From Nemertoderma westbladi (lineage: Eukaryota > Animalia > Xenacoelomorpha): a DNA stretch of 64,000 nucleotides. The DNA is taken from positions 1 to 64,000 of the forward strand of contig JAUCBJ010000021.1 of assembly GCA_032718475.1 (NCBI GenBank), written 5' to 3'. The number at the start of each line of letters is the position of its first letter. Within the stretch, counting starts at the first letter, position 1. The notes under the pieces were generated by a model that saw only the letters and a program-made list of their open reading frames with translations, was not told the origin of the DNA and did no database searches. This document shows, one piece after another, positions 19,040 to 51,072 of this stretch. The position numbers were made by a program, and so were the translations under genes.

Positions 19040-19211
19040 CCGTATAAGTACAGCAGTATTATTCGATTTGATTATATATGCCGGTAGGTCTTAATAATTA
19101 ATCGGGGACGCCTGGTTTTTATTGGGATTTTACTTAGGCCTATTTCTGTCAGTTTTATTTATTTGTAGGTCAGTATTGAACAGAAGGCGTGTAAGCCTGA
19201 TCAGATTGTGC

Positions 19212-27739: not shown

Positions 27740-29045
27740 ATGACGGAGTTGATAGAAGATGGTCTTAGTATCGGGGAGCGATATACTCTACTTTTACAAG
27801 CGTTTGTTAATAGCTTAATACGCGGCGACGTTAGTCCAACTGCTGCGGAGGACGATGGTTGTTATATCGAACCGCCAATGTCCCAAGAGCAGCTCGCGCG
27901 AGTTGGACTATAGAAAATTCGCTGCTCGATATACGCAGCGTAATGGTACGTATATGGTCTTCTTAACTACTGGTCATCCTATCGATTTACATAATACGGA
28001 CTATGTCGACTATATATCCTGCCCAGCGGAGTCGGAACCATAAACTGAAATTCGAATGCGAAAATTCTATACGAAATCGACTCGAAAGAAAAGACACTAA
28101 AGAAACAAATAAACGCGGTAACTCCAACGTATATTTGGAATTCTTGATAGAAGCATTGTAACAACAAATAAATATCACCCGCGTTTCCCCCTACCAGACG
28201 TGCGTCTTTGGTATTATTACGATAAATGCCCTAAACCCAACTAATAAACGGAAAGACATAAACATCCACGGAAACGTTGTGTTAAACACAGTTGTGCTCG
28301 TTATATTTACTGGAGTTTCGAGCGAAACTTGTTTGACGTATCACCTATGCTCACTCGGCTCGAACGATCCTGGAGTAAACCTACGATCAGAGTCCCGGAA
28401 TACTCGGTCAAACCTCCTCATTCCTTAGTTGGACCTCAGACCTGCGATCCTGGTGGTGTCGCGGATCCTCGCGGACTGTATTCACTGTTCAAAGATCTAG
28501 TGCTACCCTAACAATTAATCGGTAACACTCCGACAGTGATTTCTAGCTAGCCGCCCATCTTACCTAGCCGGATTGTGACGCGGACACCTAATATCACTAT
28601 TCAACCGTATGGTCGTTCCCGTTTAACGCGATACAACCCTTCATCAAGGTGAAGGAGAGCGTTGTACGAAACGAGTTAAACGCTATTCTATAAAGATCAA
28701 AAAAGAAACCTGCGTTTGTTCAGATAAACGTAAGTTATAACAGTAAGTCCAATCGATAAACGAATTGGCCTTATCTCAGTTCGATTGGGAAATCTCGAAT
28801 CTCTAAGAAGATATCAAGCTTAGAAAACCCTATTCTTTGCGAGAGTTTTGGATGAACGTATCCAGCTACGAGCGGAGGAAAATCAGCTCGAGGAGAAGCA
28901 TATCGAAACGGCGTATACCCCGACCATAATCCTACACCTTCTGATGCAATCATATTGCACCCTTCACCCAGGATTTATAGCCCTCCTAGTAAAGTGGCTC
29001 GCCCCAAAGAGAAAAGGACTCTTGCTAGCCTCAAAAACTGCGTAA
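27740..29045 (+). pseudogene. Fragmented extra 3' ORF of element B
   Basis: Homologous to A 3591-5036 (MTELIED, RELDYRKF.ARYT.RNGTYM, MFDVSPML, AEENQLEEKHI). Confidence 0.6.
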
Positions 29046-29148
29046 ACGCCGTCTGCGTAAAAAAGACTAACTGTTTAGAGTATCTTTATATTTTAGAAAC
29101 TGTGATTTGTTATATTTTATAGACTTAAATCCCATTTTCTGGGAGCGG

Positions 29149-30374
29149 TGTAAAAGCTTTTGCGTAATTAGCCGGTTATTATCCCCGTAAAGTACTCTGT
29201 GGTTGGTTTACCAGGCATAAAAAGGCCGTGTCCTTGCTGTACTGGTGTTTTGGAGGACATAAAAGCCATTTCTTCTGTATTTGTACTTTAGAGGACATAA
29301 TCTGTAATTTCGTGACGTAAAAAGCTCGATACTCTTGAAAACAGTGTCGCTACCATGACGACGGCTAACGGCTGATATTGCCACGTTGCCCCATAGCCCT
29401 GCTTTCTGTATCTGCCAATAGGATTTGAGTTGGTTTTGATTTTGACCTATCACAGATCTACTGAACTGAATTTCCTATCTGTATGCTCATTCTCTGTGGT
29501 GGGTGAGATCTTTGTAGAATAAGGGTAGCTGGTATTCTTATAGTTATTCTTATCAGTTTTTAGTGTTGTTGGTGATTCTAAGCCAGGAAGAACGGCTTTA
29601 GCCCTACACTAGTAGGCTTAATTATAAGGACATATATCCGTTATCTGCATTTATCACAACATAACATACCATACCTAATCAAACAACCTGTGCATACTTT
29701 ATATTGTTATACTGCTATTTACTGTCAGTTCTTCATAATATGGTTGATGAATTATTATATTTGGAATAACGATAAATAACCCCGAAACCCAATATTCTTG
29801 ATATACCGAAGGTAAGAGAGAAGGGTTACATATAACAATTGTGACTTATGTTAAAGTGGTTTGAAGTGAATCTAATGTTATTTGATAGACCCTACATGAT
29901 TCGGTCCGTGTTCCTTTTATATGTGACTAAAATCAGTGAAGATCTGCAGATTAGTGTGCAGTATTGTGCAGCATTGTGTATGAGTGAGACTGATAACGAA
30001 GCATTTCCTAAAGAATGCGCCATATATGTGAATTATAACTAAGCCATATCGTTGTGAGTAGTTTAAGTCATAACTCTGTTTATATAGATAGAGCGCCACG
30101 TCCTAAAGGAACTGTTAATATTTCCCGAAGGTGAATAATATTGTCAGAGATTATATAATACTGTCAGTCGAATAATACATTAGGCTTACATAGCAATAAG
30201 ATTAAGCCATCGAACCCAATCTCCCGGGTATATCCAGCGGGTGAATGATCGCGCACAGATTGGTTTCGACTAGTGTAGTGAATTAAATACTTGTCATAGG
30301 CTAAAGGTGATTTATTATCTAGAAGACATCCTAATTTGGCGGGTTAAACTGCCAAAGGTCTGAAAGCGCGAACA
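29149..30374 (+). repeat. Element B 3' LTR
   Basis: Repeat of 17553-18778; preceded by GGGAGCGG. Confidence 0.95.
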
Positions 30375-30379
30375 GGCCA

Positions 30380-31154
30380 AACGACTCGCGTTCATCATTA
30401 GAGAGGCGATAATTCCGTACAGTTACCCCCTCTTTCCCACAGCATCGGGTCCATTAATGAATCTCGGTCTGTCTGGTTAGCAACTAAATGAAATCTCTGA
30501 TAAGGAGCGTTGGGATGGTGTGGCGATGGTGATCACTTCGTCGAAGTTAACGTTCTCTGTCTTAAGGAAGTCGCTGATCTCAGTACTAGTGACATCAGGA
30601 AGAAGTCGGCCGATATGTATGTGGGTCTTCCGTACTACCGGAGACTTCACCGCACGTGGGGCCGACCTCGGTGGAGCAACGCGAACACGCAGTGAGCTCT
30701 CTTGTTGCCTGGAACCTCGAATAACGGGGCGGCTGACAGCGTTAGGCTGTGGAGCCCTGGTAGCAGCGCGTGGGGCTTTGCCAGAGGGCGCGGGCGTGTC
30801 TCGTGAAGTGGAGTGGGAGTGTGCCGCTTCACGATAGCTCTGCACCATCGCGGTTCTGGTTGGCGTAGCTTGGGTGGCGGTTCGGGTTCCGTCGATCAGG
30901 GTTTCCTTTCTTGATTTTAAAGTGATTGAGATCACCTCATTTTTAGCAGAGATTGTGTCAGCTCGGGCCTCAGCAAGGCTGGCGAGCGATTCCGCCAGTT
31001 TACCATCTACGGCATTGTACAGGGAGTTCATCTTCACGATGCCATCCATCGGTTGGCGTTCCTCGTCAAGAGAGATCTTTTTCTTTGTTTTTATATCTCG
31101 TATTAGTGCAATCGTTTCTGTTTGAAGCTTAGCAGTGACTTCATAATCCGCCAT
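30380..31154 (-). pseudogene. LINE ORF1 (coiled coil and RRM-like domain)
   Basis: KTHIHIGRLLPDVTSTEISDFLK followed by a frameshifted W.EGVTVRNY, typical of CR1-group ORF1 RRM-like domains; lies inside the LINE TSDs. Confidence 0.75.
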
Positions 31155-31777
31155 AGTGGCATAAAATATATATTAATAAAATTCAGATTTATACTGATTT
31201 ATATAATTAATAATCAGCCTTCAATAATATACAGTACTATGTGTCTCATTCAGTTTCAGAGTTTTAAATTAATACCTTTGGGGGGATCTAAGTGCGCGTT
31301 CACATATACATGTCTGATGTCTGGATAAGTACTGAAGTACCGGTAGGGATATGAATAATATAATACTGATTGTGATGACTGAAACCTGTTGTTACCCTGT
31401 GTTATCGTGTTCGACTTGCTGAACTGCTGAACCGTCTGGGAGTCTTCGATTAGGCCTGTGAACTCTAAGGCAGTTTGGAGCCTGTCAGTCAGCGGTGGGA
31501 TACGGTCCACCCCGCCAGCCCGCTACCCTAATTAAACTGAGTGCGTTATTTGCACATTTATGTATCATCAGTGAGTTCTGACATTCGTACCCAGGTAAAT
31601 CAGATAATGGCTGAATGGGAATTACCCAATTGTGAACTGTTGGAAGGAACCGGTAGGCCTACTGTTCTACCAGTACTGCAGTAGGAAGTGGATAGACTGT
31701 AACTGTACTGCGGCTGGTATTCGGTACCGGACCGGAAGTTAAAGTGTGGCATTTAAGTGTAAATATAGGCCTAAAGT

Positions 31778-34000: not shown

Positions 34001-34651
34001 GAAGCCCAATTTTAACTGATCAACTTTCACGAATCATTTAACTGCTCTGCTGTTGCATAAAGCACACCGAAATGTTACTAGACAGTTATTATAGTTTATT
34101 TATCTCCTTCTGAAATACACAGCCAGAGCGATTGCCATCGATCCAAGGCCAAGCAACAGAGCTATAATGGGGAACAGCAAGCTGAAAAATAAATGTTAAA
34201 TTACTAGTGATTACATGATAATAATAAAAATAATAATTTATTATTATTATTTATATTGTAAGCGGATTCAATTCCCTTCATTCTCCAGCCTAAAATGGGA
34301 CCAGTGGCATTTTACCAATATAGTTGGGGATACGAGATTACCAATAATAATCTCGCCTCATAACCAACTCGGTGGGGGGGGGGGGGGGGGGGGGGATACA
34401 GGCCCCAAAGCCACAGAGAGAGGGGAGAGGTCAAACCACCTCGGAGGGTAGAACACAGCTAGTCAAGGCTAGCGGCAGGGGGTAACACTCACACTCACAG
34501 GGAGTGCCAAAGTGACAATTAGTACATAAACCAATAGCAGGCAGGGGAGCACGTGGATAGAGATAGGAAAGCATCCATTGGGTACAGAAGGCCAAGAAGA
34601 GTAAGAGGTGAAACCAATATCTATGTGTATCAATCATATAGTTATTCTGTA

Positions 34652-36558
34652 TATTCGAAGAGACAGTAACAATACCTGCAATATCCTACTGTAAAGTTTG
34701 TGAATCAAATCATAAATCCGACCTTCTCACCAAAACAGTAAACTCTAAGTAAGCGAATATATTGCAGTATCGATCTCTTATAACCGGTGAGGCAGAAAAC
34801 AGTCTACGAGCAGACAAACTTCGATAAAACAAAATCCCGCGCAGCGAATCCTAAAATCAGGCTGACTCACTGACGGACTAAGGGGCTCGTATACCTTGCC
34901 GCGGTGTGATTTATATGGTTGGGCGAAAGGGACGCTAGCTAGGTACAGAGGCAGAGATTTGGAGATGTCTAACTAGCGGGCAAAGCACAGTAAGGACAAA
35001 GTTAATTTTATATATTTTGAGGTGTAAATAATTTCTAACGCGCGCGTGTGTTAATTCTAAACAGTCAAAAGCAGTTTTGCTCCTTCACATATATAATTAC
35101 TGGGTACGGTGTGCATTTTACAAATATTCTAATTTTGTAACTTGTAGGTCCAATACTCACGAATGATAAGGTTCCTTCCCCTCTTGCGTATTTCCAGGAC
35201 TCAAATTCAGGCATAAGGTTAATGCTACGCCCAGAATTCGGCAATTTTAATTTACCAGGTCCCTAATACTAAGAAGAAATATGTTAGTTTACTACTGTAG
35301 GCGTACAGTTACAAATAGCTATCCTGGCTCTTATCTAGAATTTTAGTCACCTAGGTAGGCTGGGTAACTTCCTATCAAGACGTTGGCGGGGACACGGTAG
35401 ATGTTAGTATATCCCTAATAGCCTCAATTTATTTTGCGCCTAGTTGTAAACTGCCCTACCGCCTGAACGGTACAATCCTAATTCAGGTGAAACACAGCAA
35501 CCCTCCTAGCCTACAAGTTCTAGTGCAATGGACACCGTTGTACTACAAATAGTCGCAGACGCACCTGCACTTAGCAAGAGTTAGGCGTACAGTTTGCTGC
35601 ACCCTACCAATGTGTATGCTTCGTACCGGTGTGCCTACGTCCTATCTGCGTACTAGTATCTGCCTGCTCTCTCTCTCCCCCCGTAGGAATGTGAAGGTCT
35701 ACTGTGGTTTTTTCCTGAATCAAGACAGTACGGTCCCTAAGATGTAATTTTAGGCTCACAGCGTGTCACTACTTCTACCCTTTTATCTTTGGTCTTACGC
35801 TTAGGTAGCAAGGCGTCGAACGCTGTCTAACCTTTCAGGCGATGGGCGAATAACTAAGGTGGTATTGCGGGTTGTCTCCTGTCTACATTCCCTTGATGTT
35901 CCCGTTCATCGCTGCGGCCCGATCTCTAGCCGGCCATCCTGATCCTAAGAGTGTTCACCGTAGTGAATCATGGTGAAAAGAAAAGCAGGTAGCGGTATTT
36001 CTGAATTTATTGCAGATAATAATACAAAATGTAATCTGAAAACTAATGACAGAATAAACAAATATCAGATAACTCAGAAGAGATAGAACATTGATAGATA
36101 GGATTGATAACTAATGAACAAATCGCACCTTTATATACCAAATTTGTGCCGCAATCAATCGAGAAAATTCTCGATTGTTCTATAGGTTCTAACAGGTTTT
36201 TAAAGATAACTATTGGTCCAGCTAATATATAACTTGCACGACATTGGTTACAATCAAATAACTACAGTCTCATTGGTTAATCTAGGTACAAACAAATGCA
36301 ATTTAATTTGTAGCGGTCAATTTAAATGAGTTGAAATTCTGCACAAAAAATAATTCGCACTTACTAGGATTCGAACTCAATACCTACTACACATATAATT
36401 TCCAACGCTCTACCGACTGAGCTACTGAACCACTTGACTAATAGGCGTACAATAGATATAGTAAATACAAATGAGGACTCAATGCAATCTTTTACAAAGT
36501 TAATTCGAATAAAATAAAATTTTGAAAATCCACGGCATTTAGGGAATATAATTCTATA
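34652..36558 (-). repeat. Element C 3' LTR
   Basis: Repeat of 49293-51199; preceded on the sense strand by GGAGCGG. Confidence 0.95.
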
Positions 36559-36689
36559 CCGCTCCATGAAAACAGGATATTATCGTGCATAAAATATACG
36601 GTTTTCACCAATAATCAATCAAACTATAGAATACTTAGGGCGTACTTACATATTTACAAATTAAATTTCAAACAATACTTCCTTTCTAC

Positions 36690-37445
36690 ATAATGATTCG
36701 ATACAAAATAATTACAAATTCAAACTTTACGTAGTTAATGCTTTACTAAGTAAGTACAATATAAATCTAAATTAAATTCACCAATATAAATCTATTGCAT
36801 CTCAATATTGCATAAATTCAAGCAATTACAAATACAAATAAATGAAAATCATAAGAAAGGCTCGCGAGTCTTCCATCTACTATTGCATCTCAAATATTGC
36901 ATAAATTCAAATAATTACAAATACTTTCGTGCCTAAATGTAGATTGCATAAGTTCGGAATAATTACAAATATGAGTCTTTCTAAGCACAAAACTTTCTAA
37001 CTATAAAACTTTCTAAATACAAAATATAACACTTTACAAATGAAACTATAAGAAAGGCCCACGAGTCTTCCATCTACTCATACTTTCTATTTCACTGTAA
37101 ATACAAATACTGCTTATAAGATATAAATTGCATAGTATTCGGAACAATATAAATTGCATAAGTTCGGAATAATTACAAATATAAAATATAAATTCTTACA
37201 AATATAAATTCTTACTAAATATAAGTCTTACTAAATATAGATATAAACTGCATAAGTTTAGAATAATATAAACTCCTTTGCATCTCAAATATGAAACATA
37301 CGCTTTCAAATATAAGTTCCTTCTAAATATAAACTTTCTAAATTTCATAAATTCGGAACAATACAAATTGTATAAGTTCGGATAAATATAAAATATATAA
37401 CTCAAATAAATCACAAATTCACAAGAAAGGCTCACGAGTCTTCCG
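36690..37445. repeat. AT-rich degenerate repeats in the C 3' UTR
   Basis: Recurrent TTGCATAAGTTCGGAATAATTACAAATA-like units and three AGAAAGGCYCRCGAGTCTTCC hairpin copies. Confidence 0.7.
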
Positions 37446-37464
37446 TCCACCCTTGCCCTCCCTT

Positions 37465-39068
37465 TTATCGCTTAGTTGATCGAGCCCTGCCGCGTCCTCG
37501 AAAACTGCGCACAGGTGACTTTGCTCGCGATATGGGACTTGTGGGGCGAGTCACTGGTTTCGTTTGGACGTTGAGAGACGGTGCGACTATTTCCTCGCAA
37601 ATTCGTCTATTTGGCATCCCAAAACCTCGACCGATTCCTCGTGACCGATCAGTTGTCACTACAGTTGGTAGAACGTCTGGGAACGCGCGAGAAACGGACG
37701 ACGCAGACCCAAGAGTAGCTTGCGCCCCCTTTTGATCAGCTGGTGTATGTCCCGATCCTCCTGTTGGTTCTCTAGGAAGCGATACCGTATCCCGAGTAAT
37801 TCGAATAGTCGTCTCAACTCCCTTGCGTTCTTCTATATTGATAGACTTCTTTAACTGTTGGCCCACTTTCTGGACCCGTATGATCCTACCCTGTCCGTCC
37901 TCCCGAGGGTGACGTGCAGACGGCGCAACCGGAGTGGCTGGTATATTTGTCGCCTCTAGGACCTCCTCTTCCTCGAATACGCTCGCTCGTATACGTTTAT
38001 GGTAAAACGCGGCTCGGTACGCCCATGCGACGGTTAACCAAGCTCCTTTATTCCGCCTTTCAGTTCGGAAACGATCGAATTCACCATACGTGATGCGATT
38101 AACGACTTTCTGAAAATTCCACGTGTTTTTGTTATCCGGGTGAATCTGTAATAGATACTCGCGCACTACTCGGAATCCACTGTCGTGGGGCAAAATATCG
38201 ACTACCTCGATAAGTTCGTCATATTGGGGCATAGCGGAGATGTATCCTTCCGACATCATCGTTTGGGGATTTACCGCCCAAAATCCAAGATGCGCTCTCA
38301 TCGGAAACCGTCTTCTTTGTGCCGATACATGTTCGTCGGCTAAATCTTCCCACTCATCGAATAATTTTCTCACGAGTTTTACAGATTCGTGTTCATAGGG
38401 TATGTCTCTTAGTTGGCATTCAGATGCTCGATGTCCTTTTATATTGCAATAAGTACATTGAGCCATAAATCTCCAGCAAGTATAAAAGGTATGAGACCCT
38501 TGATCTCCACACCATCCACAGATTAGCTGAGTCGTAGTAATGTGCTTTCCACTGCACTTGGTCGAATGATGTCCAGCGACGCCACATTTACCACACATCG
38601 TATTGGCAGGGTACCACACTCGTTCGTATATAAGATCTCCAATCGGTCGAGCGCTTCCTCCCACACTATAATCGTAATCATCTGGATCTATGGGTTGGTA
38701 GGTTTCTGAAGGTTGTATACAAACTATAGCATCTGTTGCTTCAAGTTGTCGAATCTCCGTCTGAGATTTCTTCGGGAGGTTCCTTTCTATCTCAAGAAGT
38801 TCCTCTAAAGGATCGTCAGCGATCGTAGTAGTTACTTCGAAATCATCACCAAGGTGACCGATAGGCGCACGCGTCTGCCGTGATTCGTTCGTAACCTCCA
38901 CGATACCGTCGTGTCATATTTAGTGTTTGCGAGTTTCGCTGTACTTTCTGATAATTCCTTTATACCAAATATAGTGTAGTCCTTGGCTCCAAATCTTTCG
39001 AATGGCGCTGCTGCCTCCTCTTGGATATCATATCCCCATCTCGGCTCTCCTTGTATCCCTTTCTCCAT
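37465..39068 (-). CDS. Extra 3' ORF of element C: triple CCHC-type zinc-knuckle protein with a basic RG tail (one frameshift near 38905)
   Basis: 478-aa ORF with CGKCGVAGHHSTKC, CGWCGDQGSHTFYTC, CTYCNIKGHRASEC and RGRGRAR; an overlapping ATG-initiated 78-aa ORF joins by a one-base shift. Confidence 0.75.
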
Positions 39069-39732
39069 AATTAGAGGTGTAGTTACATAATCATTACTAC
39101 TAGAGGGAATACAACAGAGTTTGTAGTTAGTTGTGAGGAGACGTGAGAGTTTCGTCTGCCCTTTGGGCTCGACAACGCTCTAACCTCCTACCCATAGCCT
39201 AAGATCTAGGGTTTCTTTAATGACACGCTGCTTCTTATCTAAAATTTTTTTTTTGCCGAAATAAAAACGAATTTGGGCTAAACTGGCTGTGAGTCTAAAA
39301 TACTCACTTTTTGATCCCAAACTATTATCAGAAAATAAGCAATCAAGAATTAGTAATAAATATAGGGGAGTCTATTTATTGACGTAACTTATTGAAACAA
39401 GACCGTGTAAAATTTAATTAAAATTTTAAGAAAGGCTCGCAAGTCTTCCTCTCTTGTTTCTCTAATTTTAAGTTCCACCCGACTGTACCCTGAAATCTAT
39501 TCACTGGAGAAAATTTTAAAATTTTTCAAATCCAAATGGATTGTCTAAAATTTCGAAAATGTCTCAATATTGTGAGTTCCAAGTAGAATTCCATTTCTTA
39601 TACCTACAAATCCCGCTCCTATGTGATACATAAGGGTACTACCCTCAATGTTCACATATAAAGACAATGGAATTCTACCGCTGTCCTTACTACAGTGTAC
39701 AGGTACGTGGAAATCTATTTTTAAACTCCTAA

Positions 39733-41826
39733 TTATTTACTAGTATTAGGTGGAGATTTGTAGTCTCCAGACTCGTTACGAGTCTCTTCAAGAAGTACGA
39801 GACGTTGAGTCGGTCTGTCTACTGTACGACCGTCAATTGTCCGTACCGTCACAGTTCTTGTCACTCCATCCATAGATGGATGTGTGGCTAAAATTACACC
39901 TGTTATCCAGAAGCGTCTTTTTAGATTCACTTCTGCTAACAGCACGTGATCTCCCGGCTTTAATGCGCGGGTGTTATTATACCAAGTTGTTCTGGCAGAA
40001 ATAGAGGGCAAATAATGGTTTTGCCATATTTCCCAGAATTTGTTAGCTAGTAGTTGCGTGATTTTCCACGCTTTTCTACCGTAGCTATCGCCTTCCATTG
40101 GAATAGAAATAGGCGTCAATGTGGTCGGTGCCTGCATTAGCAGGTGTGCCGGTGTCAAAGCAAACTGAGATTGTTTGTCATCGGGTACTAATACTATTGG
40201 TCTAGTATTTAGTATTGCCTCGATTTCAACAAACAGTGTTGTCAGTTGGTCGTCTGTCAATATGTGGTTTACTGGAATGACCTTTGCCATTGCCGTTTTT
40301 ATAGATCTAATCAATCTCTCCCAGACTCCGCCTCTCCATGGACTATCTGGAGGATTAAACTTCCAAACAATCTTGTGAGGTTGTAGTTCGTTCGAGATTT
40401 GATCATGATCTAATTTCTTAAAGGCTCTAGCAATCTCATTCCGAGCACCAACAAAGTTTGTCCCTTGGTCTGAGTACAAGCATTTCACTAGTCCGCGTCT
40501 AGCGATAAATCGCCGCAATGCTAGTATAAACGCGTTGGTGGAAAGATCCATCACACGTTCAATATGAACTGCCCTACTGGACATACATGTGAAAATCAGT
40601 CCCCAGCGTTTTACTAGTATACGTCCACGTTTCGTATGTATGGGACCAAAGCAATCAATTCCAGTCTCTGTAAAAGGTGGTCTGAATGCTTGAAGTCGTG
40701 CTTGTGGAAGTTCACTCATTTCTTGGGTACCTATTCTAGAATGTACCTTTTTACAAATAATACACGTACGTGTCACTGAACTTAATGCTTTACTGGGTCT
40801 AATTAATACAAATCTTGTACGTAAGTAGGAAAGACAGTGGTGTCTTCCAGCGTGTTTCAGATGTAAATGTGCGTCCAGTATCATTGCACGTTGTAGTTCG
40901 TGATGTTGTGGTATTATTATTGGGTATCTAAAGTTTGTGTTAAAGTCAATGTTTTGAAGCCGAGATTTATGACAAATTAAGCCATTATAAATAATCGGAC
41001 TCCAACTCAGTATTGGTGACGACTTGATTGGTTGACCTTGATTTATAGATGTGAATTCGCGCGCGAAATATCGCAGTTGGTAATGGCGAATTAATTTAAT
41101 CTCACACCTGTCAATCTCAGCCAATGTAAGTCGACGTGTAAAGTCGCGTTTGCCTTTAACGTATTGTACAAAACGTACAATCCACGCTAATTTTCGGCAA
41201 GCGTTCGTCCAAGAATCTGTTAAGTTTACAATACGGTCGACGTAAGTATTTGTGACGTCATCAGGTAAGTCAATGGAGAATTTGGAAGGTTTTGATTTAC
41301 TAGAAGGGCCCACGGGTCCGCCGGTAAGTATTCCCTTGTTGATTGTTGATCCGTCCGGGTCTACAAGTAATTTGTCCTTCTTCGTCTTCTTACCTTGGTT
41401 GTCAGTACTTTGTAAGTCGATCGTTAATGGTGGTTTGAACTCTATGGGGTCAGTGGGTTTCGGTAAACTTATTTTTCTGCCGATATTAATCCCAGGTCTC
41501 ACCATAGGTTGCAAGTTTGGTATGTCTCTTGAGCGCAAAGTAACACCTGTATTTACATTAGCGTAGGTACTACCCACATCTGTAATACATGAGGTTTCAC
41601 CGTGCTTATGGTCGCTCAAGTGTGTCAAAATTGGTAGTTTGTCAATACAAGGCCGCTCCAATAGGGAAACTGCGGCTTTTCTATTTGTCAATATGTTACT
41701 AGTGTCTGGTAGAACATTTTGTGACATGTCTGGTGAAATGTTTCGCGGAACATCCGGCGAAATATCTAATGACGTGTCTAGCAAAACGTCTGGTTGACTC
41801 TGGTAACGTATCTGGTTGTTTGTCAA
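39733..41826 (-). CDS. pol: Element C integrase (HHCC, DDE core, BEL C-terminal domain); separated from RT-RH by a 2-nt deletion near 41800
   Basis: HLHLKH..CIIC, GIDCFGP, YSDQGTNF, GGVWERLIRSIK, EIEAILNTRP, DGVTRTVTV, RPTQRLVLLE. Confidence 0.92.
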   Translation of the reverse strand: MTNNQIRYQSQPDVLLDTSLDISPDVPRNISPDMSQNVLPDTSNILTNRKAAVSLLERPCIDKLPILTHLSDHKHGETSCITDVGSTYANVNTGVTLRSRDIPNLQPMVRPGINIGRKISLPKPTDPIEFKPPLTIDLQSTDNQGKKTKKDKLLVDPDGSTINKGILTGGPVGPSSKSKPSKFSIDLPDDVTNTYVDRIVNLTDSWTNACRKLAWIVRFVQYVKGKRDFTRRLTLAEIDRCEIKLIRHYQLRYFAREFTSINQGQPIKSSPILSWSPIIYNGLICHKSRLQNIDFNTNFRYPIIIPQHHELQRAMILDAHLHLKHAGRHHCLSYLRTRFVLIRPSKALSSVTRTCIICKKVHSRIGTQEMSELPQARLQAFRPPFTETGIDCFGPIHTKRGRILVKRWGLIFTCMSSRAVHIERVMDLSTNAFILALRRFIARRGLVKCLYSDQGTNFVGARNEIARAFKKLDHDQISNELQPHKIVWKFNPPDSPWRGGVWERLIRSIKTAMAKVIPVNHILTDDQLTTLFVEIEAILNTRPIVLVPDDKQSQFALTPAHLLMQAPTTLTPISIPMEGDSYGRKAWKITQLLANKFWEIWQNHYLPSISARTTWYNNTRALKPGDHVLLAEVNLKRRFWITGVILATHPSMDGVTRTVTVRTIDGRTVDRPTQRLVLLEETRNESGDYKSPPNTSK

Positions 41827-44800
41827 TAGAAGGCCGCTCCAATAGAGAAACTGCGGCTTTACTATTTGTCAGTATGTTACTAGTGTCTGGTAGAACATTT
41901 TGTGATATGTCTGGCAAAATGTCTGGTTGGCTGTCTAGTAACGTGTCTGTTTGACCGTCTGGCGATATGTCTGGTGTAGAAAGGCTCGCAAGTCTTCCTC
42001 TCTTGACCTTTGAAGTTATATCTTTCCATTTCGCCTTCGGTTTTTTCTTGAGTTTAGCCGCCGTCCTTTTCTTTGCCTTCCCCTTTTTTGGTTTCTTGAT
42101 TTCGGCGTCCTTAGGGATGGTGTTAGACTTGTTGTCGTATAACGGTGGCCAATCTTGCGTCGATTTCTGCAAGAATTGGGGTCCGTGTTGCCAAAATTCT
42201 TTGTTCTCCGGTTTACAGAATTCCTCAGGCATCATTCCTCGCGACGCAATATCGGCTGGGTTTTGTGGTCCGGGACAATGTCGCCAATCTTCTTTTATTG
42301 AACGGTCTAGAATCTCTGCGCGACGGTTAGCTACGAATGTCTTGAATTCAAGTGTGTCGTTGTTTATGTAAAATAAAACCAACGTCGCGTTAGTCCAATA
42401 AAATATCTGTAAACTTGACTGTAGTTCTGTCTGTATAAGGTTCACGATGGTGGTTGACAGGGTTGCGGCTTGTAGCTCAGCTCGTGGTGTCGTCATATAC
42501 TTAGTAGGCATTGTTTTTGCCTTAGAAGTAATGAGCGAAACATCGAATTCTTCTGAGTCTACTTGTCTGCGCAAGTACGCTACCACACCAAAACCGTTGT
42601 CACTGGCGTCAGAAAAACAATGTAATTCCAAGTTGTCAGGAAACGTTGTTTGTAATGGAAAGTAGACTCTGGGTATGGAATAATCCTCTAGCGAAGATAA
42701 TTCTGCCTCCCAGGTCTTCCATAAGTCCACTTGGTCTGATGAGATCGGCTCGTCCCATGTCAGTCCATCTTTCCAAATACTGCGCATATAAATGCGGGCT
42801 TGCAGTATTATTGGACTGATGAATCCTAATGGATCGAACAATCGGCTCAATTTTGACAAGCATGATCTCTTTGTCAGTGTGTTTTCTTGACTGTCCAGTC
42901 TTACCTTCACTCGAAAGTTGTCCGTGTTTGGGTCCCAAAAGAGCCCCAACACCTTGGTCGTCGGTAGTGGTTCGAACTCTAGGTCTATGTCACCACCTCC
43001 ACGCTCAGTCGTTCCGAATGAGTCTACTAATTCGGCACTGTTTGAGGCGAATTTGGTGAGGTTAAAACCTCCGCCCGCTAAGCAGTCCCGTAATTGATGT
43101 GCTACTGTTGTAGCACGTTCTACTGTGTCGCAACTCTGTAAACCGTCGTCGACGTAAAAGTCACGTTCCACAATCCTAATTATCTCTGGGTCATACAAAT
43201 GTTTCTGATCCCTAGCGGCTTGCTTTAGGGCATACATCGTACAGTTTGGGCTGTCCCTGGCACCGAAAACGCGAACTTGCATTTGGTAAGTCGCCGGTGG
43301 TAGACTTAAGTCTCCTTCCGGATACCAGAGGAACCTCAAACTGTCTCTGTCTTGCTCTAACGCTCTCACTTGGTGAAACATAGCTTCAACGTCGCAAGTA
43401 AAAGCTACTTGACGCTGACGGAAGCGCATAATCACCCCCATAAGATAATTATTCATGTTTGGTCCATCCATCAACTTGCTATTGAGGGACATTCCCTCAA
43501 ACAGAGCAGCACAGTCATTGACTACACGTACTTTGTCTGGTTTGTCGGGGTGTCTCACAAAGTGATGTGGCAAATAGTATGTCTGGTTAGTCACTATCTC
43601 TGGGTTAGTCATTCGGATAGCGTATCCCTTGGTCAAATACGTCTCCATCTGAGTGTTGTACTGCAGATGGGCTTTCTCGTCCTTTAATAGACGTTGTCGT
43701 ATTGAGTGTAGACGTCTTAAAGCTAGTGGGTAGTTATTTATGAGTTTAGGACTTTGGCTACGCCATAACATCCCTACCTCATAATGTCCGTCTTTCGTCT
43801 GGCGGATAGTATCTTCCATGATCTTCAAAGATTGTTTCTCTTGTTCCGACATACATGGTTCGTAGCTACCAGGTTCAGCTGTATCTTGTTCTAACCACCT
43901 GATAGTCTTCTCCGTTAATTCTTTGTCCAATACAGCTTGTTCCACTTGATGATTTCTCAACTCGTCATCATCGATATCGACGGGCATTGTTGAGGTTGTT
44001 GGGGTAGGTAGACTCGCAAGCCTTCCGGCGTTATCATCTGTCTTCGATGGAATCTCTAGCTGACTCGTCTTCTCCCCAAGTTCTAAACTCACCTGGTGGA
44101 TTAGCTGCTCCTTGTGACTTATCATACTAGTTACACGTCTGTCATGTTTTGTATGTAAGGTAGTATGGTCCACGTCGTGTGAAAAGGAATGAATTGAATT
44201 TGTAGTTAATAAACTACATGTACTTTGTACATCGTCTTCCTCGTCACTTATGTCCAGTGTGCGCACAGGCGCTCGAGTATACCACCCTATCGGCGTCCTA
44301 CAGGCGTATGCGTTTCCCGCTACGACTGCCGATGGTCTGGTTTCCCACACTTGATGTAGGTTGAATTGGTCTGTCCCGATCAGCATTGCTACCGATCTAT
44401 AATTGACAGGACATTCAGGTACACCAAGGTGTCTGAAATACTTACGGTCCTCCAAGGATTGCTCTGGGACAGGACCTAGTAGGTTACTAAAGTCTTTGGT
44501 GGCCGCAAAAGTCAAATCCTTGAAGGGTAACAAAGACCTCTCCTTTTCGCTGTGTTGCGATTTTGGAAGAAGAGTGTCTAAGTCCAACTTAACTCGTGTC
44601 ACTGGTATTGCACGTTGTCCGTGCATACTACTTACGGTGTAACTGACGCGCTTACCTTGTCTGAGATCCGTTACTACATCAGCTATCTGTTCATCCACGT
44701 AGCTGTGAGATGAGGCTGAATCCAAGATAGCGTAGATTCTCTTGCTCCCCTTTATGCCAGTAATCTTAATCGGAATTACACTGAATCCCTTTAATTGGTC

Positions 44801-45550
44801 AGTCGTCAGAAGCGCGATCGATGGTTGTTCGTCTCCATCAGAATATACGTCGTCGTCTTCTGACTCTTCGTCCGACGATCCGGATTGTTCTGAGAAGCAA
44901 TCCTTGATATGTGTCACAAAGGTTGGAGTCGTTTTCGATTCTCGATTTTTGTAGGCCGCATTACATTTCGCTGCTGCTTCCGGGTATTCCCTGGCGAAGC
45001 GTTTTGTCGGCGTGTGGCTGTCTGTATGGAGCAGACCGTCGTGGTTGCGTCCACAGGATGGACAAGTGTCGGTATTTGGGCAATCCTTGCGAACGTGTCC
45101 GTGTCGCGTACACCGCCAACAAGAGTCCAATGGCCGTATCTGCAGCCGTCGTTCTTCCGAGTTTAACTCGCGAAACTGTCGACAACCTCTCAACTTGTGA
45201 CCGATATACCGCTTGCCTAGATGCTCGCAGTATTGGCAGCCGCTGAAGTTGGTACTGAGTTGCTGTCTCGTCTGTTTTGTCCCAATGGGCGCAGATACCC
45301 TACTACCGTCCGAGAATTGTCGTGATTCCGTCGGTGTGGCGTAAGTGGCCGTCTTAGTGGATGTTGTCTGGGGTTTTTGTCGGTTTGAGGATGGCAAGGT
45401 GATTCCTTCTGCCACGATGTGCTGGTCAGTGTAGTTGGATCGAGTTTCTACCACTGCCTCCCTGGATATCAAAAGGTACACATCCTCCAGTTTTAAGAAT
45501 CCACCCCGCTCTTCTCGCTGGTATTCGATCTTCCTCCACTCCCGACGAAG
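41699..45550 (-). CDS. pol: Element C Gag zinc knuckles, protease, RT and RNase H
   Basis: CWRCTRHGHVRKDC, AILDSAS, YYLPHH..KVRVVND, DVEAMFHQV, FGARDSP, FYVDD, FDPLG, FSDAS, TPRAELQAA, NPADIASRG. Confidence 0.95.
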   Translation of the reverse strand, partial: LRREWRKIEYQREERGGFLKLEDVYLLISREAVVETRSNYTDQHIVAEGITLPSSNRQKPQTTSTKTATYATPTESRQFSDGSRVSAPIGTKQTRQQLSTNFSGCQYCEHLGKRYIGHKLRGCRQFRELNSEERRLQIRPLDSCWRCTRHGHVRKDCPNTDTCPSCGRNHDGLLHTDSHTPTKRFAREYPEAAAKCNAAYKNRESKTTPTFVTHIKDCFSEQSGSSDEESEDDDVYSDGDEQPSIALLTTDQLKGFSVIPIKITGIKGSKRIYAILDSASSHSYVDEQIADVVTDLRQGKRVSYTVSSMHGQRAIPVTRVKLDLDTLLPKSQHSEKERSLLPFKDLTFAATKDFSNLLGPVPEQSLEDRKYFRHLGVPECPVNYRSVAMLIGTDQFNLHQVWETRPSAVVAGNAYACRTPIGWYTRAPVRTLDISDEEDDVQSTCSLLTTNSIHSFSHDVDHTTLHTKHDRRVTSMISHKEQLIHQVSLELGEKTSQLEIPSKTDDNAGRLASLPTPTTSTMPVDIDDDELRNHQVEQAVLDKELTEKTIRWLEQDTAEPGSYEPCMSEQEKQSLKIMEDTIRQTKDGHYEVGMLWRSQSPKLINNYPLALRRLHSIRQRLLKDEKAHLQYNTQMETYLTKGYAIRMTNPEIVTNQTYYLPHHFVRHPDKPDKVRVVNDCAALFEGMSLNSKLMDGPNMNNYLMGVIMRFRQRQVAFTCDVEAMFHQVRALEQDRDSLRFLWYPEGDLSLPPATYQMQVRVFGARDSPNCTMYALKQAARDQKHLYDPEIIRIVERDFYVDDGLQSCDTVERATTVAHQLRDCLAGGGFNLTKFASNSAELVDSFGTTERGGGDIDLEFEPLPTTKVLGLFWDPNTDNFRVKVRLDSQENTLTKRSCLSKLSRLFDPLGFISPIILQARIYMRSIWKDGLTWDEPISSDQVDLWKTWEAELSSLEDYSIPRVYFPLQTTFPDNLELHCFSDASDNGFGVVAYLRRQVDSEEFDVSLITSKAKTMPTKYMTTPRAELQAATLSTTIVNLIQTELQSSLQIFYWTNATLVLFYINNDTLEFKTFVANRRAEILDRSIKEDWRHCPGPQNPADIASRGMMPEEFCKPENKEFWQHGPQFLQKSTQDWPPLYDNKSNTIPKDAEIKKPKKGKAKKRTAAKLKKKPKAKWKDITSKVKRGRLASLSTPDISPDGQTDTLLDSQPDILPDISQNVLPDTSNILTNSKAAVSLLERPSIDKQPDTLPESTRRFARHVIRYFAGCSAKHFTRHVTKCSTRH

Positions 45551-48484
45551 TCAATGGTGGAGTCGTCCTATGATCTTTAATAGGACTGTAGGGGTATTCC
45601 CGTAGTCAAGTTGTCCAATGGATCTCAAAGTAGTGATAGCGTTCTTTATCTCGTCAGCCAGTTTCAATAAGTCTACGGGTTTAGTAATAGCCCCTCCCTT
45701 ACAGAGTTCCTCTATCACTGACCTGGCCATGCTGACTGTACCTCCGTAGATCGAAGTTAAACGATCGTACGCTAGTTCGAAAGCGTCCGGTACACCAACG
45801 AAGGTCTCCGCCAAACGTTTAGGTTCTCCTGACAACGTTTGAAGCAGGTAATTAAACTTCTCCCGTGATGTAAAGGCGCACACGGCGATCTGAGATTCGA
45901 TATAGTCTACGAAAGTATGCCAGTGTTTTGAGCTACCGGAAAACTTCGGTGGTTGTTGTACCGGCAATCCCTGTCTGGCTGCGAATTTCGCTATCTCCTC
46001 AGCAACGTTCAGAGTTTCGCGTCCTTGGTTGGTAATCTGGTTGATATCCCTTCTTGGCGCTTTTCCCTGATACGAAGTATGTTTTGAAGGTACCGGTCTT
46101 TGTGGTTCCTTCGGGTGTCTATTGTGTTCGAATTCAGTGTTCCTCGAACTATCGGTTTGAACTTCCTCCAGACGTTCCTCAATCTGAGCCAACTTGTTAA
46201 CAACTGGTCGCAGGATGTCGGCGAACTGTTGTGTACTGATTGCGTCCGTTGGTTGTAACGTCTTCTGTGTTGGTGTATTTTGTGGAGGATTGTCTACAAA
46301 GGAGTTGTCTGAACGCTCGCGTTTATATTCATCGGCCGCCCCTGTTCTAAATACCTCGCGTTTCGGGTAATCCGATTCGCTCGAAGTACTACTATCATCT
46401 GGATATGGTGGTCGACGTGTTCGCGTCCGTTGCGTCGTACGAATTCTAACGTTTCGTTTCGGAACATCGTCCACTGATCTCCGTTGTTCGGTAGGCTCAC
46501 AAGTCTTCCTCGAAGTCGTAGATTGCGATGTAAACTGGTTGAACGGTCGCGTATCCACTGGTCTCCGTTGTTCGGTAGGCTCACAAGTCTTCCTCGAAGT
46601 CGTAGATTGCGATGTAAACTGAACCGGTGGTCGGACGACAGCGTTTGAATCCAAAGGCTTTGTAGGCCTAAACGTCATTGGGTACGTGTAGTGCATAACG
46701 AGTTTTGGTGTCGAAGGTGGACTCACCTGTTTAGTCGTCAGTAGTGCAGGTCTGGTCAACAAACTACTACGATCTGTAATCGGTGGGTTACTTACCTTGA
46801 CTTTTAGAATAGGCGACGACGTTGCTCTTGGCGGTGTAAACTTGTCCGGAATAACAAACCTGTGTTCCGTCGCACCACGGATAGGAGAAATGTTACTACT
46901 ACCCGCAATCGAAACAGGTTCCTTAGTCGTAACTGGTGCAAACATAGGAGTTACTTGAGGGAATCTTTGACATAAGTCTTTAACTAATTGTCGTTCCCGT
47001 CCAGGTGCTCCTATCGAACCTTCCTTCATTCGTTCCTGGATTTGGCGGTGCCTTACCTCCATCTGGTCTAAATCATGTCCATCTCGAGATCTCATCGATC
47101 GATCGCGGGCTTGTAGATCCAGGTCTTCCTTGGCGTTGGCTAATTCTCTCGCCTTCTTCTCGAGTTCGAAACGAAGTTTAACTTCTTTCTCGCGTTGTTC
47201 CGTTTGTTGTTGTTGCGCCTCGAACTCCGCTTGTCGTATAGCTGATTGAGCCTTTATTTGCCGTTTTTTCATTTCGGTTCTCGCTTCTGAAGCTAACCTT
47301 TGTCGCTCTAACTCGGACGCTGCCGCTGCCGCTGCCGCTGCTGCTTGTCGCTCTAACTCGGCCGCTGCCGCTTGTCGCTCTAACTCGGCCGCTGCCGCTT
47401 GTCGCTCTAACTCGGCCGCTGCCGCTTGTCGCTCTAACTCGGCCGCTGCCGTTCGTTGCGCTAACTCGGCCACTGCTGCTTGTTGTGCAATGTCCAACTC
47501 TAACCTTTCCATTTCGGCTACTTCCAACTCAGCTTGTTCTTGCAGATGAGAGATTCTCGCAACATTCGCAACGCGTAGTTTCTCTTCTTCTGCTGCTACT
47601 TGTGCCATTAAGAATTGAGTTTGTTCCTCCCACTCTTGTTGTTGTCTGTAGATCTGCTGTTGTCGAGCAATTTCTGACGTAGCCATACTCACCTCGCCAA
47701 TTTCGCTGCGAATACTCACCAGTGATTGATCTAGTGTTCCCGGTACCGGTTCGATTTGTGCGAGTGAAGTTTCCCTCGTAGCCTCCGGCACGGTTTCCCA
47801 ATCTCCGACGTCCTCGCCGCACATACGTAAGTGATCCGTCAGGTGTTTCAATTGTCCATCCAGCCTATACAGTTCCTGTTCTTCCTCGGGCTGCAATAAT
47901 TCGTCCGAAACTGACTCACCTAACAACTGGTCCGCTTGTTCCTGTTGTATCTGCCTAATCGTCGACTTAAACTGAATCAGTTTCTCTCTAGCGATCATTA
48001 GTTTCTCGAGGATTCTAAGTTGAGTATCCATGTCCTGTCTCTGTCTAGCTAGATCTTGTAGACCAATTAGGTTATCTACGGACTTATATACTTTACTCTG
48101 TACTCTAACCTGGAGGGTGTAGAACTCGAATCGAGACATCGGAGCGGTCAACTCGTCTAATATGCGTTGGCCTTCTCCAATACTCCTGGTTATATGCGCC
48201 ATGTATCCTCCGACGCTTCTAACCACACTTTCTGTGCTTCCTGCTGAACTTACCATCTCCGTTTCCCTGTATCTAGGTTGCGGGACCGTTAGGAAATCCT
48301 CAGTCCTGCCGTCGCCTCGTACTACGGCATCCGGTACTCCCGTTGGATGTACTGGTGACGCGCACGGTGTAGGTTCGGTAGGCTCACGAGTCTTCCCCTG
48401 TGGTTCTTCCGCTTCTGACTTATCTCCGTCACATGAGTCATAGTCGGTTTGTGTATTTTTCGTATAGTCTTGTTTGTCACTCAT
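45551..48484 (-). CDS. gag: Element C Gag N-terminal part (coiled coil, AAAELERQ repeats, DUF1759-like); in-frame TGA at 45551-45553
   Basis: PPKFSGSSKHWHTF..KFNYLLQTLSGEPK; the frame continues after the stop into LRREWRK and the downstream ORF. Confidence 0.9.
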   Translation of the reverse strand: MSDKQDYTKNTQTDYDSCDGDKSEAEEPQGKTREPTEPTPCASPVHPTGVPDAVVRGDGRTEDFLTVPQPRYRETEMVSSAGSTESVVRSVGGYMAHITRSIGEGQRILDELTAPMSRFEFYTLQVRVQSKVYKSVDNLIGLQDLARQRQDMDTQLRILEKLMIAREKLIQFKSTIRQIQQEQADQLLGESVSDELLQPEEEQELYRLDGQLKHLTDHLRMCGEDVGDWETVPEATRETSLAQIEPVPGTLDQSLVSIRSEIGEVSMATSEIARQQQIYRQQQEWEEQTQFLMAQVAAEEEKLRVANVARISHLQEQAELEVAEMERLELDIAQQAAVAELAQRTAAAELERQAAAAELERQAAAAELERQAAAAELERQAAAAAAAAASELERQRLASEARTEMKKRQIKAQSAIRQAEFEAQQQQTEQREKEVKLRFELEKKARELANAKEDLDLQARDRSMRSRDGHDLDQMEVRHRQIQERMKEGSIGAPGRERQLVKDLCQRFPQVTPMFAPVTTKEPVSIAGSSNISPIRGATEHRFVIPDKFTPPRATSSPILKVKVSNPPITDRSSLLTRPALLTTKQVSPPSTPKLVMHYTYPMTFRPTKPLDSNAVVRPPVQFTSQSTTSRKTCEPTEQRRPVDTRPFNQFTSQSTTSRKTCEPTEQRRSVDDVPKRNVRIRTTQRTRTRRPPYPDDSSTSSESDYPKREVFRTGAADEYKRERSDNSFVDNPPQNTPTQKTLQPTDAISTQQFADILRPVVNKLAQIEERLEEVQTDSSRNTEFEHNRHPKEPQRPVPSKHTSYQGKAPRRDINQITNQGRETLNVAEEIAKFAARQGLPVQQPPKFSGSSKHWHTFVDYIESQIAVCAFTSREKFNYLLQTLSGEPKRLAETFVGVPDAFELAYDRLTSIYGGTVSMARSVIEELCKGGAITKPVDLLKLADEIKNAITTLRSIGQLDYGNTPTVLLKIIGRLHH

Positions 48485-49281
48485 TTCGGTAGTTGTAAGT
48501 CAAGTAAAGTGAGTGTCAAGGTATCAAATTTACCGTATTTTATCTAAACGGTACTAATTACAGTCATATAAAATTAGCCTACCGGCCGATTTTATAGCAG
48601 ATGGATAAAATTAGCCTAGACGGCCAATTTTACAGCAAATAAATGTCACGGAATAAGTATATAATAAAATTAGCCTAGCGGCCAATTTTATAACAAATAA
48701 ATCGGATAACGATATGCGTTATCAAAAGGTAAATTAAATACAATAATACGGACTAATTCAGCAATGAACAAAGAAATCATACGGAATGCATAAATACTTG
48801 AGACAGTGGAACCCACAATAATTTTAACTAATACGGTAATGCCTAACTTATTTATGCAACTTTTCGAACTCACCCACTCCAATAATTCTCCAGAAAAACA
48901 GATTCCCAGATACAAACCGGACGTGAACCTTTCCGTTTTCAGCGTTGCGGACGAAGCGCGATTTTCCCAACCAAAGTTGTTGAGTTATCTATCTCCCAAA
49001 CTTGCTAAACACGGTCTTGCTCCCGTTACAGTCTAGAAATGAGTTCTGAATCCTGAAAAACAAAAGAGTTAGGTTTTACTTTTACGAAAAATTTTGTACC
49101 GGTACAATATGGTATTTAAACCCTTTTAAACACCGGTATTCAATTCCAAAATATTTTACACGCGGTTCAAATCAAATTTTATTTCAAAAAATTAGCACTT
49201 AGCTAATCAAATATAAATTTTTACCTCAAAATACAAAATTTTCAAATAACTTTAGTCCTACCGAACCGTAGTTCAGTAAAA

Positions 49282-49292
49282 CACATTCCTAC
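49282..49292 (-). other. Element C non-tRNA primer-binding site (sense GTAGGAATGTG)
   Basis: Abuts the 5' LTR; 11/11 complementary to LTR 50324-50334 (sense CACATTCCTAC). Confidence 0.85.
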
Positions 49293-50770
49293 TATTCGAA
49301 GAGACAGTAACAATACCTGCAATATCCTACTGTAAAGTTTGTGAATCAAATCATAAATCCGACCTTCTCACCAAAACAGTAAACTCTAAGTAAGCGAATA
49401 TATTGCAGTATCGATCTCTTATAACCGGTGAGGCAGAAAACAGTCTACGAGCAGACAAACTTCGATAAAACAAAATCCCGCGCAGCGAATCCTAAAATCA
49501 GGCTGACTCACTGACGGACTAAGGGGCTCGTATACCTTGCCGCGGTGTGATTTATATGGTTGGGCGAAAGGGACGCTAGCTAGGTACAGAGGCAGAGATT
49601 TGGAGATGTCTAACTAGCGGGCAAAGCACAGTAAGGACAAAGTTAATTTTATATATTTTGAGGTGTAAATAATTTCTAACGCGCGCGTGTGTTAATTCTA
49701 AACAGTCAAAAGCAGTTTTGCTCCTTCACATATATAATTACTGGGTACGGTGTGCATTTTACAAATATTCTAATTTTGTAACTTGTAGGTCCAATACTCA
49801 CGAATGATAAGGTTCCTTCCCCTCTTGCGTATTTCCAGGACTCAAATTCAGGCATAAGGTTAATGCTACGCCCAGAATTCGGCAATTTTAATTTACCAGG
49901 TCCCTAATACTAAGAAGAAATGTGTTAGTTTACTACTGTAGGCGTACAGTTACAAATAGCTATCCTGGCTCTTATCTAGAATTTTAATCACCTAGGTAGG
50001 CTGGGTAACTTCCTATCAAGACGTTGGCGGGGACACGGTAGATGTTAGTATATCCCTAATAGCCTCAATTTATTTTGCGCCTAGTTGTAAACTGCCCTAC
50101 CGCCTGAACGGTACAATCCTAATTCAGGTGAAACACAGCAACCCTCCTAGCCTACAAGTTCTAGTGCAATGGACACCGTTGTACTACAAATAGTCGCAGA
50201 CGCACCTGCACTTAGCAAGAGTTAGGCGTACAGTTTGCTGCACCCTACCAATGTGTATGCTTCGTACCGGTGTGCCTACGTCCTATCTGCGTACTAGTAT
50301 CTGCCTGCTCTCTCTCTCCCCCCGTAGGAATGTGAAGGTCTACTGTGGTTTTTTCCTGAATCAAGACAGTACGGTCCCTAAGATGTAATTTTAGGCTCAC
50401 AGCGTGTCACTACTTCTACCCTTTTATCTTTGGTCTTACGCTTAGGTAGCAAGGCGTCGAACGCTGTCTAACCTTTCAGGCGATGGGCGAATAACTAAGG
50501 TGGTATTGCGGGTTGTCTCCTGTCTACATTCCCTTGATGTTCCCGTTCATCGCTGCGGCCCGATCTCTAGCCGGCCATCCTGTTCCTAAGAGTGTTCACC
50601 GTAGTGAATCATGGTGAAAAGAAAAGCAGGTAGCGGTATTTCTGAATTTATTGCAGATAATAATACAAAATGTAATCTGAAAACTAATGACAGAATAAAC
50701 AAATATCAGATAACTCAGAAGAGATAGAACATTGATAGATAGGATTGATAACTAATGAACAAATCGCACC

Positions 50771-50917
50771 TTTATATACCAAATTTGTGCCGCAATCAAT
50801 CGAGAAAATTCTCGATTGTTCTATAGGTTCTAACAGGTTTTTAAAGATAACTATTGGTCCAGCTAATATATAACTTGCACGACATTGGTTACAATCAAAT
50901 AACTACAGTCTCATTGG
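50771..50917 (-). promoter_or_regulatory. Putative Pol II promoter: three CCAAT boxes about 30 bp apart and TATATAAA
   Basis: ATTGG on + at 50853, 50884 and 50913; TTTATATA at 50771-50778. Motif match only. Confidence 0.55.
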
Positions 50918-51003
50918 TTAATCTAGGTACAAACAAATGCAATTTAATTTGTAGCGGTCAATTTAAATGAGTTGAAATTCTGCACAAAAAATAATTCGCA
51001 CTT

Positions 51004-51072
51004 ACTAGGATTCGAACTCAATACCTACTACACATATAATTTCCAACGCTCTACCGACTGAGCTACTGAACC
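51004..51072 (-). other. tRNA-derived A-box/B-box cassette in the C LTR (copy at 36363-36431)
   Basis: Sense GGTTCAGTAGCTCAGTCGGTAGAGCG...GAGTTCGAATCCT; intact D-stem GCTC/GAGC, degenerate anticodon and acceptor arms. Confidence 0.7.

Follow-up and report, generated by a model that had tools for sequence, protein, structure and literature searches.

The open reading frame that follows pol in a BEL/Pao element of Nemertoderma westbladi, referred to here as ORF3, is a real, spliced and constrained accessory gene of a new type, and it is accompanied by a candidate cis-acting partner, a short motif dispersed through the same element. The analysis covered a window of 64,000 nucleotides, the whole stretch of DNA studied, together with contigs from the sequencing runs X1, X3, X4 and X5, of which X1 and X3 are runs of the same organism. 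All features of the ORF3-bearing element lie on the minus strand.

The BEL/Pao element and its priming

The element occupies positions 51199 to 34652 (16.5 kb). The 5′ LTR (49293–51199, 1907 bp) and the 3′ LTR (34652–36558) differ at 3/1907 positions, and identical flanks at 51200–51204 and 34647–34651 form a clean 5-bp target-site duplication; because of these two features, the insertion is regarded as young. The LTR termini (51199 and 34652) read TAT..ATA. In BEL/Pao elements, TG..CA termini and a tRNA primer site are usual, not universal; TG..CA termini and a TGG after the 5′ LTR were looked for in this element and neither is present. The gag frame (DUF1759, 45551–48484) closes at an in-frame TAA (45551–45553), which separates it from the frame encoding the Gag knuckles, protease, reverse transcriptase (RT) and RNase H (Peptidase_A17; 41699–45550). 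The integrase frame (Integrase_H2C2, DUF5641) is found at 39733–41868, and the linker upstream of it carries a frame break at 41699–41922, inside a duplicated stretch of 110 bp that lies between the RNase H and integrase domains. The Pfam matches stand in BEL/Pao order (DUF1759, 7e-10; Peptidase_A17, 2e-42; Integrase_H2C2; DUF5641, 3e-21); RVT_1 gave no Pfam match in the element, though YVDD is visible in the RT translation. The integrase has 511 relatives at E ≤ 1e-20; those listed share 34–45% identity with it, the named sources being fish, molluscs, amphioxus, a hemichordate, cnidarians and a mosquito. Judged by its predicted gag-PR-RT-RH-IN order, Pao-type domains, paired LTRs and 5-bp duplication, the element is assigned to BEL/Pao (Belpaoviridae). 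A tRNA-like stretch with A-box- and B-box-like words is visible in the LTR at 51075–51000 (and 36434–36359); ARAGORN reported 0 tRNAs, this stretch included, and Rfam gave no match inside the element at E ≤ 1.

The primer-site position, 11 nt adjoining the 5′ LTR (49282–49292), is the exact complement of a candidate self-primer within the LTR (50324–50334). On this first element, only 11 of 12,694 internal positions (0.09%) reach an LTR complement of at least 11 nt, and the duplex is predicted to form unaided, with pair probabilities of 0.96–1.0. Two related, non-autonomous BEL elements are present in the window at 2282–14721 (minus strand) and 17553–30374 (plus strand), with LTR pairs 98.7% and 99.6% identical; gag and protease are present in both, and neither RT nor integrase was found in them. 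An exact 11-nt complement of the element's own LTR directly after the 5′ LTR is shared by all three BEL elements. The pairs of the two related elements (13556–13566 with 14291–14301, and 18779–18789 with 18038–18048) differ from each other at 5/11 positions, each difference being compensated. Tf1-like self-priming is therefore a candidate mechanism for all three elements; background on LTR termini and self-priming is available in PMC12440569, PMC6317226 and PMC3601003. Broken 3′ ORF remnants in both non-autonomous elements are unrelated to ORF3 (no tblastn match at E ≤ 10) and contain neither knuckles nor the motif. A broken LINE with endonuclease and RT (14899–17430, minus strand) and an ORF1-like frame (30477–31172, minus strand) flank the element at 17553–30374, which may have inserted into that LINE.

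ORF3, a conserved accessory gene read from a spliced RNA

Beyond the end of pol (39733), ORF3 extends from an ATG at 39068, with A at −3 and G at +4, to a TAA at 37467–37465. It spans 1601 nt, or about 534 codons, in two frames (39179–38832 and 38913–37465), which bears out the extra ORF with one frameshift described in an earlier note on this DNA. The first frame, counted from the ATG (38832–39068), encodes an acidic N-terminus, and the long frame (37465–38913) encodes 482 aa. The frame break of the window copy lies at 38906–38926. Loose contig ends occur at 38906 in X1, X3, X4 and X5 and at 38926 in X3 and X4, and the loose parts reach 63–77 letters, compared with the 19 letters between these two positions; other copies thus carry a different, longer stretch at the break.

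Three CCHC knuckles, the number given in the earlier note, are recognizable in the translation at 38416–38595, with the patterns CX2CX4HX4C (38595–38554), CX2CX5HX4C (38520–38476) and CX2CX4HX4C (38457–38416); Pfam zf-CCHC matches at E = 0.0023, short of its curated cut-off. The same note had called them unlike the Gag knuckles, which agrees with the best BLASTP match of ORF3 to the element's own Gag/Pol (E = 1.5 for the whole protein, E = 3.5 for the knuckles), and on these values the ORF3 knuckles were not copied from Gag. The region upstream of the knuckles is acidic (22 of the 100 most N-terminal residues of the long frame are D/E). The knuckles are followed by the aromatic core (37966–38410), about 150 residues long and the most constrained part of ORF3; 15 F/W/Y within residues 201–300 of the long frame confirm the aromatic-rich domain noticed earlier. 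The tail (37468–37965) is P/S/T- and R-rich and weakly constrained; its description as an RG tail holds only in part, since it contains a modest four RG dipeptides and no RGG. Basic runs comprise RRR, KRIR and the R-rich end, and the long frame contains two weak leucine-rich export-like patterns, neither of them convincing. As the earlier note had concluded, ORF3 is not an envelope. Neither a transmembrane helix nor a signal peptide was detected in it (the highest 19-residue Kyte-Doolittle means are 0.81 and 0.07 in the two frames), the N-terminus is acidic, and the long frame has a single N-glycosylation sequon; the signal peptide and C-terminal membrane anchor that would mark an envelope or fusion protein are thus lacking. 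The AlphaFold2 model of the single ORF3 sequence (mean pLDDT 38.9, pTM 0.30) was unusable.

ORF3 is shared by the copies of the family. In X1 and X3, the summed contig depth of the ORF3 bins is 39,000–52,000, within the gag/pol range over the mapped interval 34600–52400, contig depth not being copy number. None of the 15 listed joints (of 60) removes ORF3. Within 37440–39160, the only listed indel at a frequency of at least 5% is placed at 39075, upstream of the ATG, and no listed frame-shifting indel of at least 5% falls inside ORF3. Contigs of X1 and X3 (three each) cease to match at 37464, immediately past the stop codon. Moreover, contigs about 80% identical to the window copy cover the knuckles and the core in both runs (38227–38680; 20/129 and 41/198 letters differ); these represent related families of greater age that carry this ORF as well.

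For the selection test, 40 of the 117 variant places were used, picked by their support; 39 of them could be classed and one fell outside the ORF. In the long frame without the tail, 12/19 variants are synonymous, more than the 5.7 that identical base changes would give by chance (p = 0.003), corresponding to a rough dN/dS of 0.25; read in the two other frames, the same variants give 4 and 3 synonymous changes, and the per-codon count is 11/17. The excess is strongest in the aromatic core (7/8 against 2.8 expected, p = 0.004). In the knuckle region, 3/7 variants are synonymous (p = 0.22), and none of the 40 listed variants hits a Cys/His ligand codon. The tail has 8/19 synonymous variants against 5.7 expected (p = 0.18), and in the first frame one variant is listed, a synonymous one. 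The data reject neutrality in the core but not in the tail. These results establish ORF3 as a conserved accessory gene of this BEL/Pao family.

The RNA from which ORF3 is read is spliced in the manner of an env message, skipping gag and pol, as observed in one X4 contig. A consensus splice donor, G/GTGAGT, lies at 48868–48874, 390 nt upstream of the gag ATG. At the other end, a CTAAC branch site (39130), a pyrimidine tract and the acceptor AG (39101–39100) occupy 39100–39130; this acceptor is one of six sense-strand YAG sites in the element with at least 12/15 pyrimidines. The X4 contig (n = 1, depth 210.9, short side 30 letters) joins 48874 to 39099, so that 9774 nt are skipped, bordered by GT..AG on the element strand. 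A loose end at 39100, at the same acceptor, is also seen in X4; the joint is absent from X1, X3 and X5. The acceptor that the earlier note had predicted at about 39120–39100 is consequently used at exactly 39100 in this contig, and the spliced subgenomic RNA for which it had called is represented by the joint to a donor upstream of gag. The library type of X4 was labelled 'DNA?' by guess, and no run is on record as RNA; splicing is implied either way, because the contig is a transcript if the library is RNA and most simply a reverse-transcribed spliced RNA if it is DNA. The uneven depth profile of X4 hints at transcripts, although contig depth cannot rank genes. A three-codon upstream ORF (39083–39094) is located between the acceptor and the ORF3 ATG. 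A strong acceptor (CTAAC, T-tract, CAG) at 49053, with donor-like sites upstream of it within 49053–49225, suggests a possible second leader intron followed by a 178-nt ATG-free exon that ends at the ORF3 donor; this intron is absent among the joints listed.

The searches returned no relatives of ORF3 beyond generic knuckle matches among the protein, contig, PDB and Atlas sets covered. Among 6248 candidate proteins (lengths 265–844), none matched at E ≤ 0.01, and none of the 163 metagenome and 16 viral contig candidates is a relative. Searching 1.84 billion representatives with phmmer gave one knuckle-only match, P0001, which was rejected as a relative, being a Gag-like knuckle protein similar (34%) over the knuckles only. 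The whole long frame has four PDB matches, the best at E = 0.69; among the knuckle matches, 7C42 also spans residues 8–69. In the Atlas, the best score is 0.89 (fungal DUF8363/CCHC clusters; recognition 2021), under the lead level of 0.9. Homology to Air2/ZCCHC7, CNBP or LINE ORF1, the comparisons proposed in the earlier note, was not established in these searches.

A dispersed 20-nt motif in the same element

A near-palindromic 20-nt motif (GGAAGACTYGYGRGCCT..) occurs nine times in the element, always on the sense strand and in one orientation, as eight exact matches and one copy with two mismatches, compared with 0.36 copies expected at up to three mismatches. Copy 1 (48377–48396) is placed in the gag N-terminus, and copies 2 (46574–46593) and 3 (46490–46509), a tandem duplicate, are also in gag. 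In pol, copy 4 (44007–44026), which has the two mismatches, is situated between protease and RT, and copy 5 (41979–41998) after RNase H. Copy 6 (39430–39449) falls between pol and the acceptor, and copies 7 (37425–37444), 8 (37052–37071) and 9 (36855–36874) are in the 3′ UTR. Five of the nine are thus carried by coding linkers and six by the intron, the spliced RNA also carrying three, and the LTR contains no copy. In an unbiased repeat scan, the motif was the top-ranked dispersed repeat, with 9 clusters compared with 3–4 for unrelated words. Nothing motif-like is present in the two other BEL elements of the window, both of which are devoid of a knuckle ORF.

The flanks of the copies are mostly unrelated, apart from the tandem duplicate and some flank shared by the UTR copies. 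The reading phase of the motif differs between gag and pol; therefore, the constraint acts on the nucleic acid, not on protein coding. In the central YGYG both G are invariant, both Y vary, and no G-to-A change is seen. This asymmetry between the strands would fit reading as a single strand, the number of independent events being small since copies were duplicated. A stable RNA hairpin was considered and is not supported: sense-strand hairpins have energies of −0.4 to −4.9 kcal/mol and none beats its shuffles, most are more stable on the opposite strand, one of the nine (copy 6) is predicted in its local context, and the motif pairs display no covariation. Of the hairpin motifs at 39433 and 37428 said to bracket the ORF, the motifs themselves exist; they are two of nine copies, are not specific to these positions and fold no more stably than shuffled sequences.

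Possible function of ORF3 and comparison with known systems

The reading preferred here, at a probability of about 0.4, is that ORF3 encodes a Rev/CERV-like regulator, putatively motif-binding, which lets the unspliced RNA of its own element avoid nuclear retention or decay. The strong donor upstream of gag would yield the spliced RNA from which the ORF3 protein is made; its knuckles would then bind the 20-nt motif on the element's own RNA, and the unspliced genomic RNA would thereby escape retention or decay. Single-stranded nucleic acid is the usual ligand of CCHC knuckles, and from this class of domain an RNA-binding accessory protein, as the earlier note had proposed, would follow. Among the roles suggested there (primer-annealing chaperone, export factor, silencing suppressor), the export or shielding of unspliced RNA agrees best with the evidence. 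Splicing from a strong donor ahead of gag leaves such an element with the need to bring its unspliced RNA out of the nucleus (PMC10309623). Four steps are inferred: the protein is translated, the motif is recognized by it and not by Gag or a host protein, the target is the RNA form of the motif and not the DNA, and recognition leads to export or protection. Several observations count against the regulator: the weakness of the sense-strand hairpins, the weakness of the two leucine-rich export-like patterns of the long frame, a near-palindrome that would also fit a dimeric DNA binder, and the three copies retained on the spliced RNA. Slightly less probable is the idea of self-recognition, by which a knuckle protein in the env slot and a 20-nt address repeated nine times, even within gag and pol linkers, would allow only the unspliced RNA (or the DNA) of the own family to be exported or shielded.

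The retroviral proteins Rex, Rem and Rec combine arginine-rich motifs with a CRM1 export signal and a single response element that is long and structured. As in these systems, ORF3 would be a regulator made from spliced RNA, with a cis-element on the genomic RNA of its own element as the proposed target. The same likeness extends to Rev, which is described with an arginine-rich motif, a CRM1 export signal and an RNA element that is likewise single, long and structured (PMC10309623). In contrast to all four, ORF3 has knuckles, no clear export signal and nine short weak hairpins. CERV of Cer1, a Gypsy/Ty3 element of C. elegans, is a Cys-loop protein made from spliced RNA and required for the export of unspliced RNA (PMC10309623). 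It resembles ORF3 in its length of about 500 aa, its spliced RNA, its Cys-rich putative zinc site and its lack, in that account, of homologues outside close relatives. However, CERV has exons in common with Gag, its loop is of the C4 type, a candidate export signal is present in it, and it belongs to a Gypsy element, whereas ORF3 is placed in the env position of a BEL element and has three CCHC knuckles and a dispersed motif; CERV was not among the matches of either protein search with ORF3. The LTR elements of bdelloids similarly carry family-specific third ORFs after pol that are not envelopes and are typically expressed from spliced messages, but these encode DEDDy exonucleases, GDSL esterases and coiled-coil or transmembrane proteins, and neither a knuckle ORF3 nor a BEL element is named in the part of the source available (PMC5408684). 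In type I LINE ORF1, three CCHC knuckles are immediately preceded by an RRM (PMC4120745); in ORF3, Pfam finds no RRM at E ≤ 1, and the region upstream of the knuckles is acidic. In the accessible part of a BEL/Pao survey, env is the only extra gene mentioned (PMC3118150), and searches of open-access main text listed neither a knuckle ORF3 nor a motif of this kind for any BEL/Pao element.

An unlikely but serious alternative is that ORF3 acts on DNA, like a transactivator or the VANC-like anti-silencing systems (PMC5735166 and PMC6719617, both seen in part), and binds the palindromic motif in integrated copies to keep only its own family open. VANC21 and VANC6 of the Arabidopsis VANDAL elements likewise pair an accessory gene with a family-specific motif in one orientation within the element, whose arrays are described as spreading by tandem duplication; they differ in belonging to DNA transposons and in having a non-palindromic DNA motif of 8–9 bp, mainly non-coding, according to the available text (PMC5735166), whereas here an LTR element carries a 20-nt motif, partly in coding linkers. 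A near-perfect 20-bp palindrome with a variable 4-bp centre, with all copies oriented alike and some of them multiplied by tandem duplication, would suit such a system, as would the acidic N-terminus of ORF3 and a CpG o/e of 1.0–1.3 in the internal region of the element versus 0.59–0.81 in its flanks. However, the LTR is free of the motif, the knuckle class speaks for single-strand binding, the two motif-less BEL elements also reach a CpG o/e of 0.89–0.94, and the central CpGs of the motif show no G-to-A change. Rather improbable is a second nucleocapsid-like chaperone, packaged and aiding self-priming, strand transfer or packaging. The knuckles and basic tail do resemble nucleocapsid, retroviral nucleocapsid knuckles are the best PDB matches to the ORF3 knuckles (E = 0.035–3), and the element has no tRNA primer site; yet Gag knuckles are already encoded by the element, and chaperoning of this kind needs no constrained core of 150 residues. 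The primer-annealing role in particular is less likely because, on prediction, the self-primer duplex needs no help to form, and both BEL elements that lack a knuckle ORF3 have it too.

Less probable again is a captured Air1/2-ZCCHC7-like module, which would act, independently of the motif, as a decoy for TRAMP and the nuclear exosome or as a shield from their decay activity. Among the 5 of 17 PDB matches listed, Air2 (2LLI) is the one whose alignment pairs all three consecutive knuckles, including the middle CX2CX5HX4C knuckle common to both; an Atlas cluster with AIR2-like knuckles scores 0.78, and the DEDDy exonucleases among the bdelloid ORF3s (PMC5408684, in part) would suit the idea. At E = 0.96, the Air2 alignment is not significant and constitutes a lead only, the likeness does not extend beyond the knuckles, and an Air-like protein appeared neither in the phmmer search nor among the 6248 candidate proteins. 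Air1/Air2-ZCCHC7 proteins have five knuckles, against three in ORF3. We give still less credit to the proposal that Gag or a host factor reads the motif and that ORF3 has an unrelated role, such as interference with small-RNA silencing. In its favour, the link between ORF3 and the motif consists of co-occurrence in one element and co-absence in two related ones, and the centre of the motif presumably resembles the N-box and TCTCGCGAGA-type host sites; host sites, however, need not be 20 nt long, nor lie in one orientation within coding linkers. Hardly credible, finally, is that ORF3 is a nested insertion absent from other copies or a neutral relic, the outcomes that the earlier note had named as speaking against its claim. 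The ORF3 of the window copy is broken, and gag-pol also contains an in-frame stop and a frame break, but in X1 and X3 the ORF has the coverage seen for gag and pol, and it is spliced from the element's own donor, displays the synonymous excess outside the tail and is free of listed frame-shifting indels of at least 5%.

Summarizing, an ORF in the env slot that is spliced like env need not encode an envelope. The way in which the unspliced RNA of LTR elements with strong splice sites leaves the nucleus is known for few elements, and the element described here offers a matched candidate pair for this step, a protein and a short cis-motif.
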